64,000 nucleotides of DNA from a virus (lineage: Duplodnaviria; Caudoviricetes), in the IMG/VR virus record IMGVR_UViG_3300028410_000746; one strand, given 5' to 3'. Shown here piece after piece: positions 19,742-62,079 of the stretch. Made by a program: the position numbers and the translations under genes. Positions within the stretch are counted from its first letter, which is position 1. Each line of letters begins with the position of its first letter. The notes under the pieces were generated by a model that saw only the letters and a list, made by a program, of their open reading frames with translations, was not told the origin of the DNA and did not search any database.

Positions 19742-19814
19742 TAGTCACGATGGGACTCGAACCCATACACGGGGATTTAGAATCCCCTGCTCTAACCCGT
19801 TGAGCTACACGACT
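19742..19814 (-). tRNA. tRNA-Sup(CUA), amber suppressor, copy 1
   Basis: Cloverleaf; anticodon arm GGGGA-TT CTA AA-TCCCC; A73; no encoded CCA. Confidence 0.9.
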
Positions 19815-22060: not shown

Positions 22061-22252
22061 TCAAGCGATACGCTCGACCTCGAACTCATCGGAAGCCCCA
22101 CCACCAACGGTCACTCGATCGCCCGGTTTTTCCAGGCTCTCCAAGCTCTTGACATCGAAGTCGTCGTTGCTGGTGACCAGCTCGTTGACCGAGCCGGTCC
22201 AGATCAGGGTTCCGCTGTCGTAGAGATTCACATCGTAGTCCAACATGGTCAC
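22061..22252 (-). CDS. Hypothetical protein
   Basis: RBS AAGGAG; behind a promoter copy at about 22280-22310. Confidence 0.55.
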   Translation of the reverse strand: MTMLDYDVNLYDSGTLIWTGSVNELVTSNDDFDVKSLESLEKPGDRVTVGGGASDEFEVERIA

Positions 22253-22322
22253 GCTCCTTGTGCGTTAGGTTGCACGAGGTATGTACCACAAGGAGATTAG
22301 GCTGTAAAAGAAAACTACGAAG

Positions 22323-22395
22323 TGGACGATGCGAGGATCGAACTCGCTACCTCCGCTGTGCAAAAGCGGCGCTCTCCCAGATGAGCTAATCGCCC
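22323..22395 (-). tRNA. tRNA-Ala(UGC)
   Basis: Cloverleaf, G3:U70, A73. Confidence 0.95.
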
Positions 22396-22459
22396 GGAAA
22401 CGGGAGGGGGGTTGCAAACGAGCCTCCGTAGAGGGCATCGCCTGCAACCCCGATATGAG

Positions 22460-22590
22460 CTGTACGAACAAGGGACTGGAAACGGAAGTTTAGCGTGCTA
22501 CCCATACACTACCCCCCGAAGGGGGCCGGGACTCGAACCCGGTCTGCCTCATTAACAGTGAGATAACCGTTTGCCATTCAGATCGTACAG
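22460..22590 (-). ncRNA. Circularly permuted tRNA-Asn(GUU)-like domain (core 22494-22563) in a conserved scaffold
   Basis: Order: anticodon arm (loop CT GTT AA), T arm, CCCCC-TTCG-GGGGG, D arm. Flanks pair. Confidence 0.75.
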
Positions 22591-22610
22591 AACATCACCC
22601 GTAAGGGTTG

Positions 22611-22740
22611 TGCGGTCAAGAGGTTAGAAGTGCTTATATATCAGATGCCTCTACCAGTTGGGCTACGTCGCTATAGGCGCGACGGCGGGGCTCGAACCCG
22701 CAACACTCCGATTCCGTTAAAGCTCTTCAAGCAGACCGCA
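22611..22740 (-). ncRNA. Circularly permuted tRNA-like domain opened in the anticodon loop (core 22641-22713)
   Basis: AA-TCGGA, variable loop, T arm, CGTCGC-GCCTATA-GCGACG, D arm, TCTGA. Flanks pair. Confidence 0.7.
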
Positions 22741-22742
22741 CA

Positions 22743-22882
22743 TACGGACCGAGGGAGTCGAACCCTCGCGTTTAGACCTCGCCAGGAGTTTTTTAGTACC
22801 TTGGGGTCGCCCGTATCTCGTCTTTCCGAGATGTCACCGCAAGAATTTTGGTCTGAGTACCTACCAACCTTGCGGAATCCGT
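22743..22882 (-). ncRNA. tRNA-like RNA with a large structured insert
   Basis: Acceptor ACGGATT/GGTCCGT plus A73; T arm GAGGG-TTCGACT-CCCTC; internal hairpins. Confidence 0.45.
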
Positions 22883-22899
22883 AGGTACCCCCCAGCGTC

Positions 22900-23717
22900 T
22901 GGTCTTGCTGGACCTCTCCAGGAGGTGCGAGGAACTCCCTGAGCATCCCGTCTCCCAACAACAATGGCAAGAGGGTTCCTCATCCTGGAGGGTGGTGTTT
23001 GAAGCTGGGTCAAGTTTGCGTAGCCAGGGTGCAAGCCACGTCTCTCAACGGGGCAAGTTTTGGATAACCCGAGCTACATCAGACCCAGCTTCAAGCTGGT
23101 CCGGCCGGAGCCGGTAGAAAGCTTCCCGGTCAAGGTAGCGTAGGAGGGTATCCCCCAGCCCAACCCAGACCCACTCTCGCAGGTAGGGCTCGACATGGGG
23201 GTTTCCAGTAACCCTGCCTACATCAGACCGGAAAGAGGTGTCGCAGATGCGGTGTGGTCGCGAAGGGAACGGAAGGGAAGGGACCATCCCCATGTGCGTG
23301 GGGAATCGATCGAGTTACCATCTCTCCCACCCGCTAGAAGCCCCCTCGGTGAAGCCCGAGACCTCCCTCCGGGTATGAACCGGAGGGTGTGCTGATTACA
23401 CCAGAGGCACCGTGTCACCTCAAGGGTAACTTCGGCAGGACCTCTCCACGCACTTTGCAGTGCCTACCTTTGCTGATATCCGCGACAGGTAGTAATCCAG
23501 TGCTCCGTTCTGGACTTGCACCAGACCTTCCCGCAGACCTCTCCACCAAAGAAGAGAGATGAGGGGCGTGCCTCTAAAGGTACTCGGCGCTTCATCGGAG
23601 GATCTAAAGACCCGTCCATTTCCGTCGCCTCGTACGCCAACACTTTCGGAACAGAACGTTCGATCAAGAGAGCGACGAGGAAGATTTTTGCGGTAATCCT
23701 CGTCAGCAGATCGAACG
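22900..23717 (-). ncRNA. Highly structured non-coding region in the tRNA operon (several scaffold copies)
   Basis: No credible ORF; many nested stems and repeated motifs. Confidence 0.55.
23280..23308 (-). repeat. Degenerate solitary type I-E-like repeat
   Basis: CGATTCCCCACGCACATGGGGATGGTCCC. Confidence 0.45.
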
Positions 23718-23792: not shown

Positions 23793-23877
23793 AAGAGTCT
23801 TTCGAGCAAAGAATGTGCAGTTGCCGGGGGGTATCGTTTGGGGATAACCCAGCGTTCGCGGGCAGCTCGGAAGACAG

Positions 23878-24164: not shown

Positions 24165-24237
24165 AGCGACTGGCGAGACTCGAACTCGCTATCTCCTCGT
24201 TGGAAGCGAGGTGCCCTGCCGGTTGAGCTACAGTCGC
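24165..24237 (-). tRNA. tRNA-Gly(UCC)
   Basis: Cloverleaf, C2-G71, U73. Confidence 0.95.
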
Positions 24238-41477: not shown

Positions 41478-41567
41478 ACACATCTCCAAAAAAGCGGAGG
41501 GGGAGTCGAACCCCCGGCGCCGCACTCCGCTAAGACACTACTCAAAGAGGGATGGACGCTGCCAGGA

Positions 41568-42789: not shown

Positions 42790-42863
42790 TGCGCCGAGTG
42801 GGGCTCGAACCCACAACACGGGGATTTAGAATCCCCTGCTCTAACCCGTTGAGCTATCGGCGC
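42790..42863 (-). tRNA. tRNA-Sup(CUA), amber suppressor, copy 2
   Basis: Perfect 7-bp acceptor GCGCCGA/TCGGCGC; same D and anticodon arms as copy 1; A73. Confidence 0.92.
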
Positions 42864-44279: not shown

Positions 44280-44350
44280 CTCTGGGACCGGGACTTGAAC
44301 CCGGAAAGATTGGTTAACAGCCAATTATGATACCATTTCATCATCCCAGA
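44280..44350 (-). tRNA. tRNA-Asn(GUU)
   Basis: Cloverleaf, G73. Confidence 0.9.
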
Positions 44351-44377: not shown

Positions 44378-44462
44378 GGTGTCGGGAAGGAGTCGAACCT
44401 TCATACCTCCGAAGAGGAACTGGGCCACACGGAGGCGAGCCTGCCAATGCTCAACCGGACGC
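44378..44462 (-). ncRNA. Tyr-like tRNA paralog C (loop GT GTG GC); its own acceptor and anticodon stems do not pair
   Basis: D arm, long variable arm and T arm intact; halves complement paralog B. Confidence 0.6.
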
Positions 44463-44467
44463 CCAAA

Positions 44468-44551
44468 TGCGCCGGGTAGGAGTCGAACCTACAGGTCTCC
44501 GAAGAGAACCCTCGCTACAACCAGCCGAGCTTACCAATGCTCAACCGACAC
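44468..44551 (-). ncRNA. Tyr-like tRNA paralog B (loop TT GTA GC); its own anticodon stem does not pair
   Basis: D arm, long variable arm and T arm intact; halves complement paralog C. Confidence 0.65.
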
Positions 44552-44662: not shown

Positions 44663-44749
44663 CAATGACCTCTCACGGAATCGAACCGTGACCCGCAGGG
44701 GGAGACACCCCCACGTAGGTGAGGAAAAGTCTGCGACAAGAAGTCATTG
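44663..44749 (-). ncRNA. tRNA-like element with an 11-bp acceptor-like stem and T arm, no D arm
   Basis: CAATGACTTCT/AGAGGTCATTG; CACGG-TTCGATT-CCGTG. Confidence 0.45.
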
Positions 44750-58322: not shown

Positions 58323-58633
58323 TGCGCAAACCATGGGTGTGCCGTGACTCCCCGACCGCCGCAGTCGTCACATGGAGGATGAGAATAGAGAACCCCCTCG
58401 CCGCCACACGCGCCACACTCAAGGTCGTAGAGGACCCCTTGGTAGTCACACCTCGCGCAGCCGTCCGGATCTTCCCCGTCTCCTTCCCCTCCGCAGGCCG
58501 GACACGGAATCTCTTCCAGGAAGCCATCCCCCCGACAGACCTCGCACTCGGTCTCCAGGAGGAGATCCTTTCGGACCCCCTCCATCATACAGACCTCGCA
58601 CTCGACGAGCATTGTGGGAGGCATGGGACTCAT
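58319..58633 (-). CDS. DnaJ-type CxxCxGxG Zn-finger protein
   Basis: Multiple CxxCxGxG repeats. Confidence 0.7.
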   Translation of the reverse strand: MSPMPPTMLVECEVCMMEGVRKDLLLETECEVCRGDGFLEEIPCPACGGEGDGEDPDGCARCDYQGVLYDLECGACGGEGVLYSHPPCDDCGGRGVTAHPWFAQ

Positions 58634-61600
58634 ACAGACGGCTCCTGGACGAAGGGCTCGGTCACCGGGAGAGCCTTGGTCCAGTCACGAAGAACGTCTC
58701 GGAACACCAGCGGCGGAATCTGCTCCACGCGGTCCACCGGGTAGAACGTCATTTCGCTGAGCACCAGGGCGTCCACGTCACGCAGGTCCTTGGTACACTG
58801 CGAGGGCATGATGACCTCACGGATGCCCGCGCGATGCGCGGCGATGACCTTCTCCTTGATGCCGCCGACCGGGAGCACCTGACCCGTGAGCGTAATCTCA
58901 CCGGTCATGGCCACCTCTCGGCGCAGCTTGAGCCCCGCGAAGCGAGAGAGCAAGGCGCTGAACATCGTGATGCCTGCGGAGGGACCATCCTTGGGGATGG
59001 CGCCAGCCGGCACGTGGATGTGAAGGTCGTGCGACTTGATCATGTTGGTGTCTACTCCATACAGATCGCCATGCGCACGCAGGTAGCTCAGGGCAGCCCG
59101 GACAGACTCCTTCATGACGTCTCCGAGCTGGCCCGTCAGCGTCACCTCACCCTTACCCCCTTTCATCGCCTGCACCTCAATGAAGAGGATGTCTCCACCT
59201 ACCGCCGTCCAGGCCAAGCCCGTTGCCACGCCCTCCTGATCCTCACGCTGCGACACCTCCGAGATGTACCGAACGGGACCCAGCGCCTTCTCGACCCGCC
59301 CCATGTCCAGGGGGAACACCGCACCGAGACGCTCAGCCTCCGGAAGCTTGACGACATCCACAGCGATAGAGCGGCACAGGTCTCCCAGCCTACGGTTCAG
59401 GCTACGGACGCCCGCCTCACGGGTGTACTTGTCCACCACGTGGTGGACCACCCCATCCGCGACCTCGATCTGGTCGGGCCCCAGACCGTGGGCGGCTACC
59501 TGCTTGGGGAAGAGATAGCGAGTCGCGATCTCATTCTTCTCGAACATCGTGTAGCTGGGGACCTCCAGGATCTCCATACGGTCACGCAGCGGAGCCGAGA
59601 TCGTATCCAACCGGTTGGCCGTGGCGATGAAGAGGACCTTGGACAGGTCAAGGTCTATCTCCAGGTAGTGGTCGTTGAACGTCGAGTTCTGAGCCGGATC
59701 AAGAACCTCCAGGAACGCGGCGGCGGGGTCGCCTCGGAAGTCCGAGCCCACCTTGTCGATCTCGTCCAGGAGGATGACCGGGTTCATCGTGCCGGCCTTC
59801 TGAAGCGCTCGAACGATGCGGCCCGGCATGGCGCCCACATAGGTACGACGGTGACCACGGATCTCGGACTCGTCGTGCATACCTCCAAGGGAGATGCGCG
59901 CGAACTTGCGGCCCATCGTCCGGGCAATGGACTTGGCGATGGACGTGTTATGCGTCACAATCACGTCATCAGTGATGTAAAGAGAATCAGGAGCAGAGAC
60001 CTTGATGCACTGAGTCTCCTTGACACCTACCGCTACGATATCAGAGATGAACCTCTTGGGAGCGTACTTACTCTTGGAGACCCACCGCTGAGCTTTGGCG
60101 TCACACCAGAAGGGACACTGACCCGCCGACATTGAGACCGTCACGTTGTACGCCAGACGACCCGAACGCCTCTCCCCATCAACCGTATATGACGGCTTTT
60201 TCATCGTCACCCGTGTCACCCCCCCAAGCGACCGGACCAACCACTGCACGTCATCACACAATCGCGTCGACGTCGTACAAAAAGAAACCCTACAACCCGT
60301 CGCGTCTACAGTACCGCCAGTGTCCATCAAGCCCTGCAAAAGAGCGAGCCTCTGCTCTACCGAGCCGTAAAGGTACACATAAGGTACATGCTTTTCGTAC
60401 GAGTAGAGCCCCGTAAGTTCCAGAGCATCCAGCTCCACCTGCAACGCGTCCCGTACAGACCCCTTTCGCCCTGCGGTCAAACGATAGTCACAGGTCTCCG
60501 ACGCTTGCTTGCGCATCCGAACCTCCCCCGGCAAGGCGGCAGCTACGCGTGCGCAAATATCACCCTCTGGGTTTGAAAAACCAACGGAAGCTCCCGTAAG
60601 GCCTCCATCTCCCAAGAGCGCCCCCAAGAGGTACGGGTCAAGGGGTACGGACTTTTCCGCAAACTCCAAGGGCTGGGTCAGAGGGATAGAATGGTTGCGG
60701 CGAGCGTCCGAGCCGTACCGAAGCGTCTCTCGGATTTGCTCCAGAGACTTCACCGACCCCTCACGGGAAGCCTTCCGATCGAGGTCGGTATGCGTGTACC
60801 ACAAGTGCTCGTCGCAACACTCTGTTGATGAGCCGTCTTGAAACTCCACACGATACACCGGCCGCGTGCCTTGAGGGAACGCGCCCTCCACGTGATGAAC
60901 GCCCCCGTCCGCACCCATGACCGCATCACCTACCGCAAGCGTACCCATCGCAACCCAACCCTTCGGGGTCAACACCCGCGCATCCAAAGGCTGCGCCTTG
61001 CCCACACCGGGAGGGCCCACGAAGCACAGGATCGGGCCGTTCATGTCCTGCTTGAGCGCCTGAACAGCCAGATGCTCGACCACCCTTCGCTTCACCTTCT
61101 CCAGGCCGTAGTGGTCCGCGTCGAGCACATCCTCCGCGCGGACGACATCCAGGTTGTCCTCGCTCTCGACGCCCCACGGCACATCGAGCATCTGCTGGAT
61201 GTAGTTGAGCGTCACCGAATACTCGGAGCTGGCCGGCTGCATCGCGTCGAGTCGACGATGCTGCTTCAGGACCGCAGCCTCCACCTCCTCAGGCATGTCT
61301 GCCTCCTGAATACGCTCAAGCAGCTCCTCCGTCTCGGAGATGTCCTCACCGAGCTGGTCCTTGATGACCTTGAGCTGCTGGCGAAGGATGTACTCACGCT
61401 GAATAGACTTGCTGCGCTCCTGGAGCGACTGGTTGATCTCACCCGCCAGCTCCTGGCGCGCGATACGCTCCCCCAGGATGCGCAGACACCGAGACGCGCG
61501 CTCCGTGATGTTCGGCTCCAGGTAGAGAGCCAACAGGTCCTCATCCTCGAAGCGGGGCGCGAGCATGTCTGTAAGGTCTGAGAGGGAGCCCACAGCACGC

Positions 61601-62079
61601 ACGCGCTCGAACTCCTGCTCGGGAGCGTCCGGATCGTCTCCCAGGACCTGAAGCGTCTTCTCCTGAAGCGCCTCGAACAGCGCTTCATTGTACTCCGCCT
61701 CCTTGTCGAACTCCGGTCCAATGACCTCGAAGTGACCCATCAACGGCGCGGAGGCATCCTCCGGAATCTCAAGATCCAGGAGCCTCAGCCTCACCTCCCC
61801 GGAAGAAATGACCGTATAGTCGTTCGCGTTCGGGTTCGGGATGATCTTGATGCAGGACACCAGGGTCGCGATCTCGTGGACCTCATCCATCGAGGACAGC
61901 GTGAGCACGTCCGGAGACTTCTGAAGCACGACCGCGATCTTGAAAGGCGCCGGCGAGTCTGCACCCTCAATGACCGCCAGGGAGCGTGCTCGACCGACCC
62001 GAACAGGGATCATCTGTAGCGGGAAAAGAGGGTTCTCGCGCATGGCGATCACGGGAAGGTACAGGGTGTCAGCGCTCAT
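58630..62079 (-). CDS. lon: ATP-dependent Lon protease containing an intein
   Basis: LON N-domain, GPPGVGK|T, LLDEIDK, DGPSAG catalytic Ser, IGGIKEK-type VGGIKEK. Confidence 0.97.
59947..60996 (-). mobile_element. Class-3 intein (350 aa) with a LAGLIDADG domain in the Lon P-loop
   Basis: Starts AQPLD, ends VTHN before Thr+1; WCT signature (HLW, TQC, VTHN). Confidence 0.92.

Follow-up and report, generated by a model that had tools for sequence, protein, structure and literature searches.

A probable YrlA-type Y RNA with a permuted tRNA-like domain in a lake-water jumbo phage

The minus-strand element at positions 22460-22590 of the window, that is, the whole stretch of 64,000 nucleotides of viral DNA (Duplodnaviria; Caudoviricetes; IMG/VR record IMGVR_UViG_3300028410_000746) that was analysed, is very probably a YrlA-type Y RNA of a lake-water jumbo phage with a genome of ~373 kb. 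The element, called copy B in the following, belongs to a conserved, covarying family, the members of which co-occur near-universally with Ro genes. It adds a member to a class known since 2014 from both bacteria and phages and is not a novel kind of RNA.

YrlA is the bacterial partner RNA of the Ro60 protein (Rsr). Its ends pair into a stem with the motif GNCGAAN0-1G, which is thought to bind Ro, and its middle, which runs from a T arm through a closed acceptor-like stem (AS) to a D arm, mimics a tRNA (PMC4201824). Such RNAs were reported in 2014 in 254 bacteria and 22 phages, mostly less than 4 kb from rsr (PMC4201824). The first-pass annotation of this locus, made from the sequence alone, knew of no description of the architecture for phage, and this has to be corrected.

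Architecture of the element

Copy B consists of a permuted tRNA-like domain inside a long bulged stem. Its parts, all on the minus strand, are as follows, with the basis of each assignment in brackets.

22460-22590: whole Y RNA, copy B; the RNA ends are predicted (sequence, fold, covariance model R1, Rfam YrlA)
22590-22583 with 22467-22460: outer stem, in DNA letters CTGTACGA with TCGTACAG (sequence)
22583-22590: 5' strand of the outer stem, CUGUACGA, followed by UC and the bulge UGAAU at 22580-22576 (sequence, fold)
22460-22467: 3' strand of the outer stem, UCGUACAG, preceded by the bulge GUCCCUUGU (sequence, fold)
22567-22575: 5' strand of the inner stem, GGC-AAACGG, pairing with CCGUUU-CCA at 22477-22485 (sequence, fold)
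22572-22567 with 22485-22480: inner stem, in DNA letters AAACGG with CCGTTT (sequence)
22563-22568: GGUUAU, which includes the YUAY conserved in YrlA (sequence; PMC4201824)
22547-22563: anticodon-arm mimic TCTCA-CTGTTAA-TGAGG, the 'V' stem-loop of the YrlA literature (sequence, family survey, ARAGORN)
22543-22546: variable loop CAGA, 4 nt (sequence)
22526-22542: T arm CCGGG-UUCGAGU-CCCGG (sequence, covariation)
22512-22525: sealed acceptor stem (AS) CCCCC-UUCG-GGGGG (sequence, covariation)
22495-22511: U8-A9 (TA at 22511-22510) and D arm GUGU-AUGGGUA-GCAC at 22509-22495 (sequence, covariation)
22486-22494: G26 (22494), followed by the A-rich linker CUAAACUU, which returns to the inner stem (sequence)

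The anticodon-arm mimic has a stem of 5 bp and a 7-nt loop that reads C-U-GUU-A-A. The sealed acceptor stem comprises five G-C pairs capped by a UUCG tetraloop, and its 14 nt are the only nucleotides between the T arm and TA, in agreement with what the first-pass annotation had counted. A48, the last base of CAGA, is able to form the Levitt pair with U15. The YUAY motif ahead of the V stem-loop is present as UUAU at 22566-22563, and the same motif as GGUUAU of copy B occurs as GGGUUAUC in nematode sbRNA and other Y RNAs. The 3' bulge GUCCCUUGU includes the CUU that is common to all six scaffolds of the locus described below.

In the minimum free energy fold (z = -2.6), the helices of the flanks, the T and D arms and the sealed stem are all recovered; the fold puts the anticodon-like hairpin in a slightly shifted register, whereas the family data favour the unshifted one. 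ARAGORN found no tRNA in the native order. After un-permuting, for which the UUCG loop was cut, G26 was joined to the hairpin and one A was added as discriminator, it called a tRNA-Asn(gtt) of 71 nt with all four arms. Thus, copy B is a complete permuted cloverleaf that is open at 26/27 and sealed at the acceptor end. The parts listed by the first-pass annotation were all found at their minus-strand places, as seen in the sequence and, for most helices, in the fold, and its reading holds: a circularly permuted Asn(GUU) cloverleaf, sealed at the acceptor stem, that is no normal tRNA gene. It had also noted that the flanks pair, which they do in sequence and fold, without recognising in them the stem that binds Ro60 in Y RNAs.

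The Rfam tRNA model called no tRNA at copy B, and neither ARAGORN nor Rfam found a tmRNA there. The flanks form a long helix with 3- and 8-nt bulges and no bulge-helix-bulge motif, and the acceptor junction is a bare UUCG, with no removable spacer that carries a discriminator. A promoter and terminator scan gave nothing exceeding the shuffled background, and none of the RNA sequencing runs searched for the stretch contains the copy B locus. The locus is identical in three public assemblies and hence shows no variation.

The phage also carries a normal tRNA-Asn gene, which the first-pass annotation had placed at 44280 and which is real (44280-44350). It has in common with copy B the loop CUGUUAA and 16 of the 17 T-arm bases, and only about half of all positions agree; a recent copy of the phage tRNA-Asn was therefore rejected as the origin of copy B. 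The D stem of copy B is closer to those of the family members L022 and L052 than to that of the tRNA-Asn.

Assignment to the YrlA family

In a permissive Rfam scan of positions 22200-23000, YrlA (RF02553) was the only non-tRNA family to be found, with copy B scoring 27.1 bits (E = 0.0017). This falls short of the YrlA gathering score of 69 bits. However, none of 15 Ro-adjacent phage loci, that of Pleione included, reaches the threshold either, and the low score is therefore no argument against membership.

A family model was built from phage sequences. A pattern scan of IMG/VR (GGTTAY, gap, GGGTTCGANNCCC, gap, GTAGNNNA) yielded 118 loci, among which were 67 distinct elements with a sealed stem of at least 4 bp; 65 elements, with the window left out, made up alignment A1, from which the covariance model R1 was built. 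R1 matched copy B at 22478-22576 with 65.6 bits (E ~1e-13, an E-value that rests on a short calibration). The next match in the window after copy B and its neighbour copy A was the tRNA-Thr/tRNA-Leu junction with 29.7 bits, which is the best tandem-tRNA junction in the window. The match of copy B is thus far beyond chance.

Copy B has the order of parts of YrlA, i.e., T arm, sealed acceptor-like stem-loop, UA and D arm, with tRNA-like T and D loops, and the fold contains the bulged end stem. Its 5' motif reads UCUGAAUG instead of GNCGAAN0-1G, a CUGAA(N)G variant also seen in Magritte and in locus L134, where the element lies next to a Ro gene. The 5' strand of the outer stem together with its bulge is a candidate Ro60-binding module, as a variant of the published motif.

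Covariation across the family

A search with R1 over 72 sources retrieved 110 phage elements (alignment A2), and many viral contigs contain two to five tandem copies, as the window does. Among these members the T helix is paired in 100%, the sealed stem in 94.8% and the D stem in 97.3%, while slid controls are only ~45% paired. Changes on both sides occur at 17 of 19 pairs, and none of 500 shuffles attains the observed score, though it should be noted that many members are kin and that model-made alignments are biased towards the model. In the sealed stem, the length of which ranges from 14 to 34 nt, all six pairs show both-sided changes. The Levitt pair 15:48 covaries as well, with G:C in 70 and A:U in 27 members; U15:A48 of copy B is a third complementary combination. 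Building a covariance model and searching other phage genomes had been proposed by the first-pass annotation as a check, and conservation elsewhere is its outcome.

The conservation of GGUUAY, of the T loop and of GUAG...A exists by construction, because the retrieval pattern fixes these parts, and pairing of the sealed stem was the filter for A1. GGTTAY was demanded of the relatives and not of the element in the window. Close relatives of the phage were not found by megablast in the phage collection, the neighbouring 409-aa protein has no relative in IMG/VR, and the proteins of the window have no homologue in the retrieved viral loci. The covariation is therefore drawn from distant members and not from syntenic relatives.

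An anticodon-like hairpin throughout the family

The hairpin between GGUUAY and the T arm was part of neither the retrieval pattern nor the filter. Of the 110 phage elements, 75 have a hairpin (stem of 5 bp, loop of 7 nt) that stops 3-6 nt short of the T stem, compared with 21 expected from shuffles. Loops of the form Y32-U33-NNN-R37 make up 58 of these 75 (1.4 expected from shuffles), and 45 read CU-NNN-AA. By position, U33 occurs in 71, C32 in 57, A37 in 54 (G in 14) and A38 in 59 of the hairpins. The middle triplet varies (UGU 9, GUU 9, GCU 5, GUG 4 and ~20 others), so that CUGUUAA is among the commonest loop types of the family and not a private mimic of tRNA-Asn. The pair 29:41, which was not individually required, is formed in 72 of 75 hairpins, with changes from C-G to U-A, and the 5-nt spacer to the T stem most often reads AGGUC or UGGUC, a typical class I variable loop.

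After un-permuting, ARAGORN called a tRNA in all 75 hairpin-bearing phage elements, compared with none of the 110 in native order. Bacterial elements, mostly from Actinomycetota, contain the hairpin in 86 of 128 cases, and 77 of the 86 were called tRNAs after un-permuting. The family data thus agree with the anticodon-arm label of the first-pass annotation for what the literature calls the variable (V) arm. The annotators of Magritte had labelled the 5' two-thirds of its element as tRNA-Arg(tct). As far as can be read from sequence, in this branch of YrlA the tRNA is broken at 26/27 and its anticodon arm is intact.

Loops with U33-G34-U35 are of the type of the queuine tRNAs (Asn, Asp, His, Tyr). 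They occur in 15 of 75 phage and 31 of 86 bacterial hairpins, which is more than the 1 in 16 of chance in sequences that are not independent. A rule that all hairpin loops carry UGU (TGT substrate) was rejected in view of AUUGCAA in Pleione and CUUCUAA in Magritte; the enrichment remains.

Co-occurrence with Ro genes

Relatives next to Ro genes were found by way of copy A, the neighbour of copy B. By BLAST, copy A matches a stretch without annotation inside the tRNA array of mycobacteriophage Phabba, and the Phabba element in turn led to relatives that lie 180-450 nt from annotated Ro genes: ~180 nt upstream of a gene annotated as 'Ro' in Pleione (Bxz1 type), ~400 nt upstream of a 'Ro-like RNA binding protein' in the Microbacterium phage Magritte, and directly downstream of a Ro-like gene in Snenia. 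Copy B and these relatives have in common CGG-UUAY, hairpin, T arm, sealed stem, UA, D arm and R-C.AAAC..-CCG, the R-C.AAAC.. standing where copy B has G26 and its linker.

The association is general. A TROVE-like open reading frame lies within the few kb around the element in 19 of 58 IMG/VR loci with a sealed element, usually at less than 1 kb and on the same strand. In the remaining records, Pfam TROVE is found elsewhere in 33 of 38, and in 20 of 21 among records that are at least 90% complete. Altogether, TROVE is present in 52 of 57 viral records with the element, compared with 4 of 28 controls (tRNA-bearing viral records that match the crude pattern and lack a sealed element). In bacteria, 63 of 91 loci with an R1 match contain a TROVE open reading frame within the 8-kb locus.

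No TROVE domain was found in the 64-kb window, neither by Pfam on 20 open reading frames nor by phmmer and a small HMM on all six-frame open reading frames, and two window open reading frames of ~535 aa gave no match to a Ro alignment in profile-profile comparison. Recoding of TAG, suggested by two tRNA(CUA) genes, was tried and rejected: reading TAG as Gln joins few frames and yields no open reading frame of the size of Ro. The window is part of a circular lake-water metagenome contig of 373,477 bp (ENA ERZ27315555 k141_181878), in which window coordinates equal record coordinates + 3281; that the contig closes on itself follows from the window spanning both of its ends. In the 118 kb (32%) of the contig covered by record positions 352,255-373,477 and 1-96,821, precomputed Pfam assignments and a Ro profile revealed no TROVE. 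Copy B is thus not one of the YrlA genes with rsr on the same strand at less than 4 kb.

The missing gene carries little weight, because the Ro genes of jumbo phages can lie far from their YrlA genes: in five jumbo-phage records that are at least 90% complete, the distances are 8, 87, 110, 167 and ~136-329 kb. By analogy with these records we infer a Ro gene elsewhere in this phage genome; the Ro gene of this phage is either distant or absent.

An array of Y-RNA-like genes

The ~2-kb stretch in which copy B lies, bounded by tRNA-Gly (24165-24237) and tRNA-Ala (22322-22395), contains no convincing reading frames. The following further elements were found in this stretch, all on the minus strand.

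22609-22742: copy A, a second YrlA-type Y RNA directly upstream of copy B (Rfam, R1, fold)
23003-23091: Y-RNA-like scaffold D, without tRNA-like domain (fold z = -5.7; RF01656 22.8 bits, E = 0.048, sub-threshold)
23123-23235: Y-RNA-like scaffold C, without tRNA-like domain (fold z = -4.3; RF01656 18.5 bits, sub-threshold)
23657-23717: Y-RNA-like scaffold E (fold z = -6.1)
23798-23874: Y-RNA-like scaffold F (fold z = -3.3)

Copy A has a T arm and a D arm on either side of the sealed stem CGUCGC-GCCUAUA-GCGACG, lacks the anticodon hairpin and is enclosed by the outer stem UGUGCGGUC/GACCGCACA. It scores 33.2 bits with Rfam YrlA (22621-22731) and 45.8 bits with R1, and a seawater contig carries a relative of it.

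Scaffolds C-F each have an outer stem of 9-13 bp of their own sequence, the 5' strand of which ends in GUC, AUC or AGC, followed by a 5' bulge starting with UG, an inner stem, GGUUAY or AUUAC, and an A-rich tract; the 3' bulge ends in CUU immediately ahead of the returning strand. The stem of copy B and the five neighbouring scaffolds have GGUC/GAUC-UG...GGUUAY...CUU-GAC in common. In view of these common features, the phage appears to carry a six-gene Y-RNA-like array, in which two genes contain tRNA-like domains.

RF01656 comprises the nematode stem-bulge RNAs, which are the worm homologues of Y RNAs. Its matches to scaffolds C and D run from end to end via GGUC-UG, GGGUUAUC and CUUGACC. As here, the bulged helix at the base of metazoan Y RNAs and nematode sbRNA has GGUC-(C/U)G in its 5' strand and CUUGAC in its 3' strand, and GGGUUAUC is present too; presumably, the stem of the window resembles human Y RNA sequences as well. 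Unlike copies A and B, the eukaryotic RNAs lack a tRNA-like domain, and scaffolds C and D score below the RF01656 gathering value.

The window further encodes 16 tRNAs and PTH2, a peptidyl-tRNA hydrolase, and RNase T-like and CYTH proteins are encoded nearby; as context, this gene content fits a genome with a strong commitment to tRNA functions. Degenerate Tyr-like tRNAs are found at 44378-44551.

Comparison with known RNAs

The closest parallels are the YrlA RNAs of mycobacteriophages (ET08/Bxz1 type; Pleione L010:3997-4111 and Phabba L001:5970-6074) and of M. smegmatis (PMC4201824), which have the same order of parts as copy B. In the mycobacteriophages this order is CGG-UUAY, hairpin with 7-nt loop, T arm, sealed acceptor stem, UA, D arm, A-rich linker and CCG. 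The Phabba gene, like copy B, lies inside a tRNA array, 37 kb from the TROVE gene of its genome. The mycobacteriophage type scores 84-87 bits with R1, compared with 65.6 for copy B, which differs in having the shortest sealed stem (5 bp and UUCG), U15:A48 instead of G:C or A:U, a GUGU/GCAC D stem and the 5' motif variant UCUGAAUG; moreover, at least 30 kb upstream and at least 68 kb downstream of it are free of a Ro gene. The YrlA of M. smegmatis has a 7-bp sealed stem, which is opened by RNase P, after which CCA is added (PMC4201824), whereas the stem of copy B has 5 bp. The view of the first-pass annotation that the element cannot mature into a chargeable tRNA is therefore likely to be right without being certain.

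The crystallised YrlA domain of Salmonella (6CU1) closely mimics a tRNA but 'lacks the anticodon loop' (bioRxiv 10.1101/312249). The Salmonella Typhimurium RNA (RF02553), which is bound by Rsr, resembles copy B in its L-shaped tRNA-like domain with closed acceptor stem and conserved T arm, D arm and UA. However, the equivalent of its anticodon stem continues straight into the Ro-binding stem, while copy B has a closed anticodon hairpin and its Y stem exits between the D and anticodon arms (26/27).

In the permuted tRNA genes of Cyanidioschyzon merolae and some archaea, as in copy B, the sequence for the 3' part of the tRNA precedes that for the 5' part. These genes give working tRNAs and have a bulge-helix-bulge and a spacer at the acceptor end, in contrast to copy B with its break at 26/27, its acceptor end closed by a tetraloop, and its family that goes with Ro60. 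tmRNA likewise contains a tRNA-like domain within a larger RNA, and permuted, two-piece forms exist, but it has a free CCA end, the alanine pair G3:U70 and a tag frame, and no D or anticodon arm.

Alternative explanations

None of the following explanations fits the Ro co-occurrence and the covariation as well as the assignment to the Y RNAs. One, which goes back to the first-pass annotation, would make copy B a tRNA decoy that is independent of Ro, a sealed mimic of the Asn type that soaks up an anticodon nuclease or a tRNA sensor, with the flank stem merely stabilising it. Such a role of YrlA has been suggested in print (PMC7790460), anticodon loops are well kept in the family (U33 in 71 and A37 or G37 in 68 of 75 members, with 1.4 canonical loops expected from shuffles), and no Ro gene was found in the 118 kb around copy B. 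However, the presence of TROVE in nearly all records with the element and in few controls, and the Y-RNA stem signature that the flanks share with Ro-adjacent relatives, make this explanation unlikely. It should be noted that only the form without Ro is a rival, because a decoy role and Ro binding are compatible with each other.

Still less probable is that copy B has no function, as the remains of a tandem tRNA pair or as a spurious match where two tRNAs adjoin. YrlA has been proposed to descend from dimeric tRNAs (bioRxiv 10.1101/312249), and the arrangement of the element is consistent with such an origin: the first tRNA would have supplied the anticodon arm, the variable loop, the T arm and the 3' acceptor strand, and the second the 5' acceptor strand and the D arm. 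The tandem tRNA junctions of the window do score weakly with R1, at 19-30 bits, and degenerate tRNAs are present in the window. Nevertheless, copy B scores 36 bits above the best junction, its stem is sealed by a 4-nt loop that leaves no space for two tRNA ends, compensatory changes preserve all helices and 15:48 over more than 200 elements, and the locus is the same in three independent assemblies.

A true permuted tRNA-Asn gene of the C. merolae type, the product of which would be circularised, opened at the acceptor stem and charged, is the least credible possibility of all: in spite of the full cloverleaf accepted by ARAGORN once un-permuted and of the processing of M. smegmatis YrlA by RNase P and CCA addition (PMC4201824), the acceptor stem is 5 bp with a tetraloop and has no discriminator, spacer or CCA, the sealed stem varies in length across the family and the triplet is not conserved, the flank helix with its two bulges is no bulge-helix-bulge motif, the family tracks Ro genes, and the phage already has a normal tRNA-Asn.

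Discussion

The assignment of copy B to the Y RNAs leads to a proposal for how it might work. In Y RNAs the basal stem binds Ro60, and the remainder gates the cavity of Ro60 or links the protein to a partner, which in Deinococcus is polynucleotide phosphorylase (PMC4201824). For YrlA, a protein that recognises the elbow of tRNA is the expected partner (10.1101/312249). By analogy, copy B would be expressed, bind Ro and have a partner of its own. Its paired ends would form the long bulged stem, the module that in Y RNAs binds to the outside of the Ro60/Rsr ring, and the complete permuted cloverleaf carried by this stem would fold into the L-shape of a tRNA without a free CCA end. The phage would thus make Ro-Y RNA particles with a whole tRNA that lacks the CCA end as the exposed module, and copy B would, as in the studied Y RNAs, tether Ro60 to a tRNA-recognising partner or gate Ro60 against it. 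The module might in this way bring enzymes that handle tRNA to Ro.

Alternatively, the exposed module might act as a competitor of real tRNAs for the enzymes by which tRNA is attacked or repaired, in the setting of a conflict between phage and host around tRNA cleavage and repair. Hughes et al. have suggested that YrlA might be a competitive inhibitor of an anticodon nuclease (PMC7790460). Because the frame of the anticodon loop is kept, the competition idea is directly testable.

The YrlA literature, as far as it was covered here, contains no statement that V is an anticodon arm. A complete, family-wide anticodon-arm mimic with a variable triplet may thus be an addition to published YrlA work. 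A tentative and rather doubtful extension is that in this branch of YrlA, in phages and mostly actinobacteria, the V stem-loop is a selected mimic of the anticodon stem-loop, that Ro-Y particles present a whole tRNA as a bait, decoy or sensor for enzymes acting on the anticodon loop, and that the six-gene array is a battery against tRNA-cleaving defences of the host. It is based on the retention of C32, U33, A37 and A38 around a free triplet and on the over-representation of U33-G34-U35.

The family-wide anticodon-arm mimic, the six-gene array and the distant or absent Ro gene are the points that deserve the attention of specialists. Copy B adds a lake-water jumbo phage to the hosts of Y RNAs, and it indicates that phage YrlA genes can sit far from any Ro gene and can form arrays, here of two tRNA-bearing copies and four bare scaffolds. 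The survey may be more useful than copy B alone. It yielded over 160 YrlA-type elements in which the anticodon arm is complete; ARAGORN takes nearly all of them for ordinary tRNAs after un-permuting, the Rfam YrlA threshold misses these elements, and in a deposited phage genome at least one has been annotated as a tRNA gene. The anticodon-arm mimics offer a concrete handle on what the tRNA-like module of bacterial Y RNAs binds.

Additional Y RNA-like elements

The YrlA-type Y RNA with the anticodon hairpin (22460-22590, minus strand) has several Y RNA-like neighbors:

22609-22742, minus: second YrlA-type Y RNA (copy A), directly upstream of the hairpin-bearing element and itself without an anticodon hairpin
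23003-23091, 23123-23235, 23657-23717 and 23798-23874, minus: four Y RNA-like bulged hairpins without a tRNA domain

The motifs GGUC/GAUC-UG, GGUUAY and CUU-GAC are common to the four bare scaffolds and both YrlA copies of the window, and two of the four match the nematode sbRNA family RF01656 with scores below threshold. A relative of copy A is present on a 151-nt contig from a seawater metagenome; the loop of its sealed stem, the acceptor-like stem-loop between T arm and D arm, carries a 10-nt palindromic insertion.

Orphan T arms and unusual tRNAs

tRNA-like features extend beyond the YrlA domain:

22767-22751, minus: orphan T arm GAGGG-TTCGACT-CCCTC, closing a structured stretch of about 140 nt (22743-22882) just upstream of copy A
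41499-41515, minus: orphan T arm followed by a T run
44667-44731, minus: orphan T arm in a short, mascRNA-like (21 bits) structure of acceptor plus T arm, ahead of the tRNA cluster
44378-44551, minus: tandem pair of degenerate, Tyr-like class II tRNA look-alikes that follow the real tRNA-Tyr
19742-19814 and 42790-42863, minus: two tRNA genes with the amber-reading anticodon CUA, labeled Pyl by ARAGORN

Neither ARAGORN nor Rfam called a tRNA in the structured stretch next to copy A. The Tyr-like look-alikes score 29.6 bits with the Rfam tRNA model and 26.6 bits with tRNA-Sec, and the anticodon regions of both are disrupted. Reading TAG as sense joined few frames, and genome-wide recoding is not evident.

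YrlA elements in other phages

The Microbacterium phage Magritte (OR553905.1) has one YrlA copy at L011:2847-2948 and another a short way upstream of its Ro-like gene. The 5' two-thirds of the latter are overlapped by a feature annotated as tRNA-Arg(tct) (L011:2979-3055); that annotation is therefore probably wrong. The YrlA-type RNA of the Mycobacterium phage Phabba (NC_054714.1, about 93,850-93,960; L001:5970-6074) is unannotated and lies between tRNA-Val and tRNA-Glu; the TROVE gene of this phage, at about 131 kb, is 37 kb away. A further viral contig has a permuted (two-piece) tmRNA gene (L134:2552-2820, minus); the Ro gene and YrlA element of this contig are a few hundred bases away. At its gathering score, the Rfam model for YrlA (RF02553) detected none of 15 Ro-adjacent phage loci, and thus standard pipelines leave the YrlA RNAs of phages and actinobacteria without annotation.

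Lon-type protease and closure of the contig

One protein-coding gene should also be mentioned:

58630-62079, minus: Lon-type protease of 1149 aa

This protein probably contains an intein, because its middle part matches Hint/intein-bearing phage proteins. Both ends of the 373,477-bp contig k141_181878 (ENA ERZ27315555) are spanned by the window, and therefore the assembly closes on itself, which is consistent with a complete jumbo-phage genome that is circular or terminally redundant.
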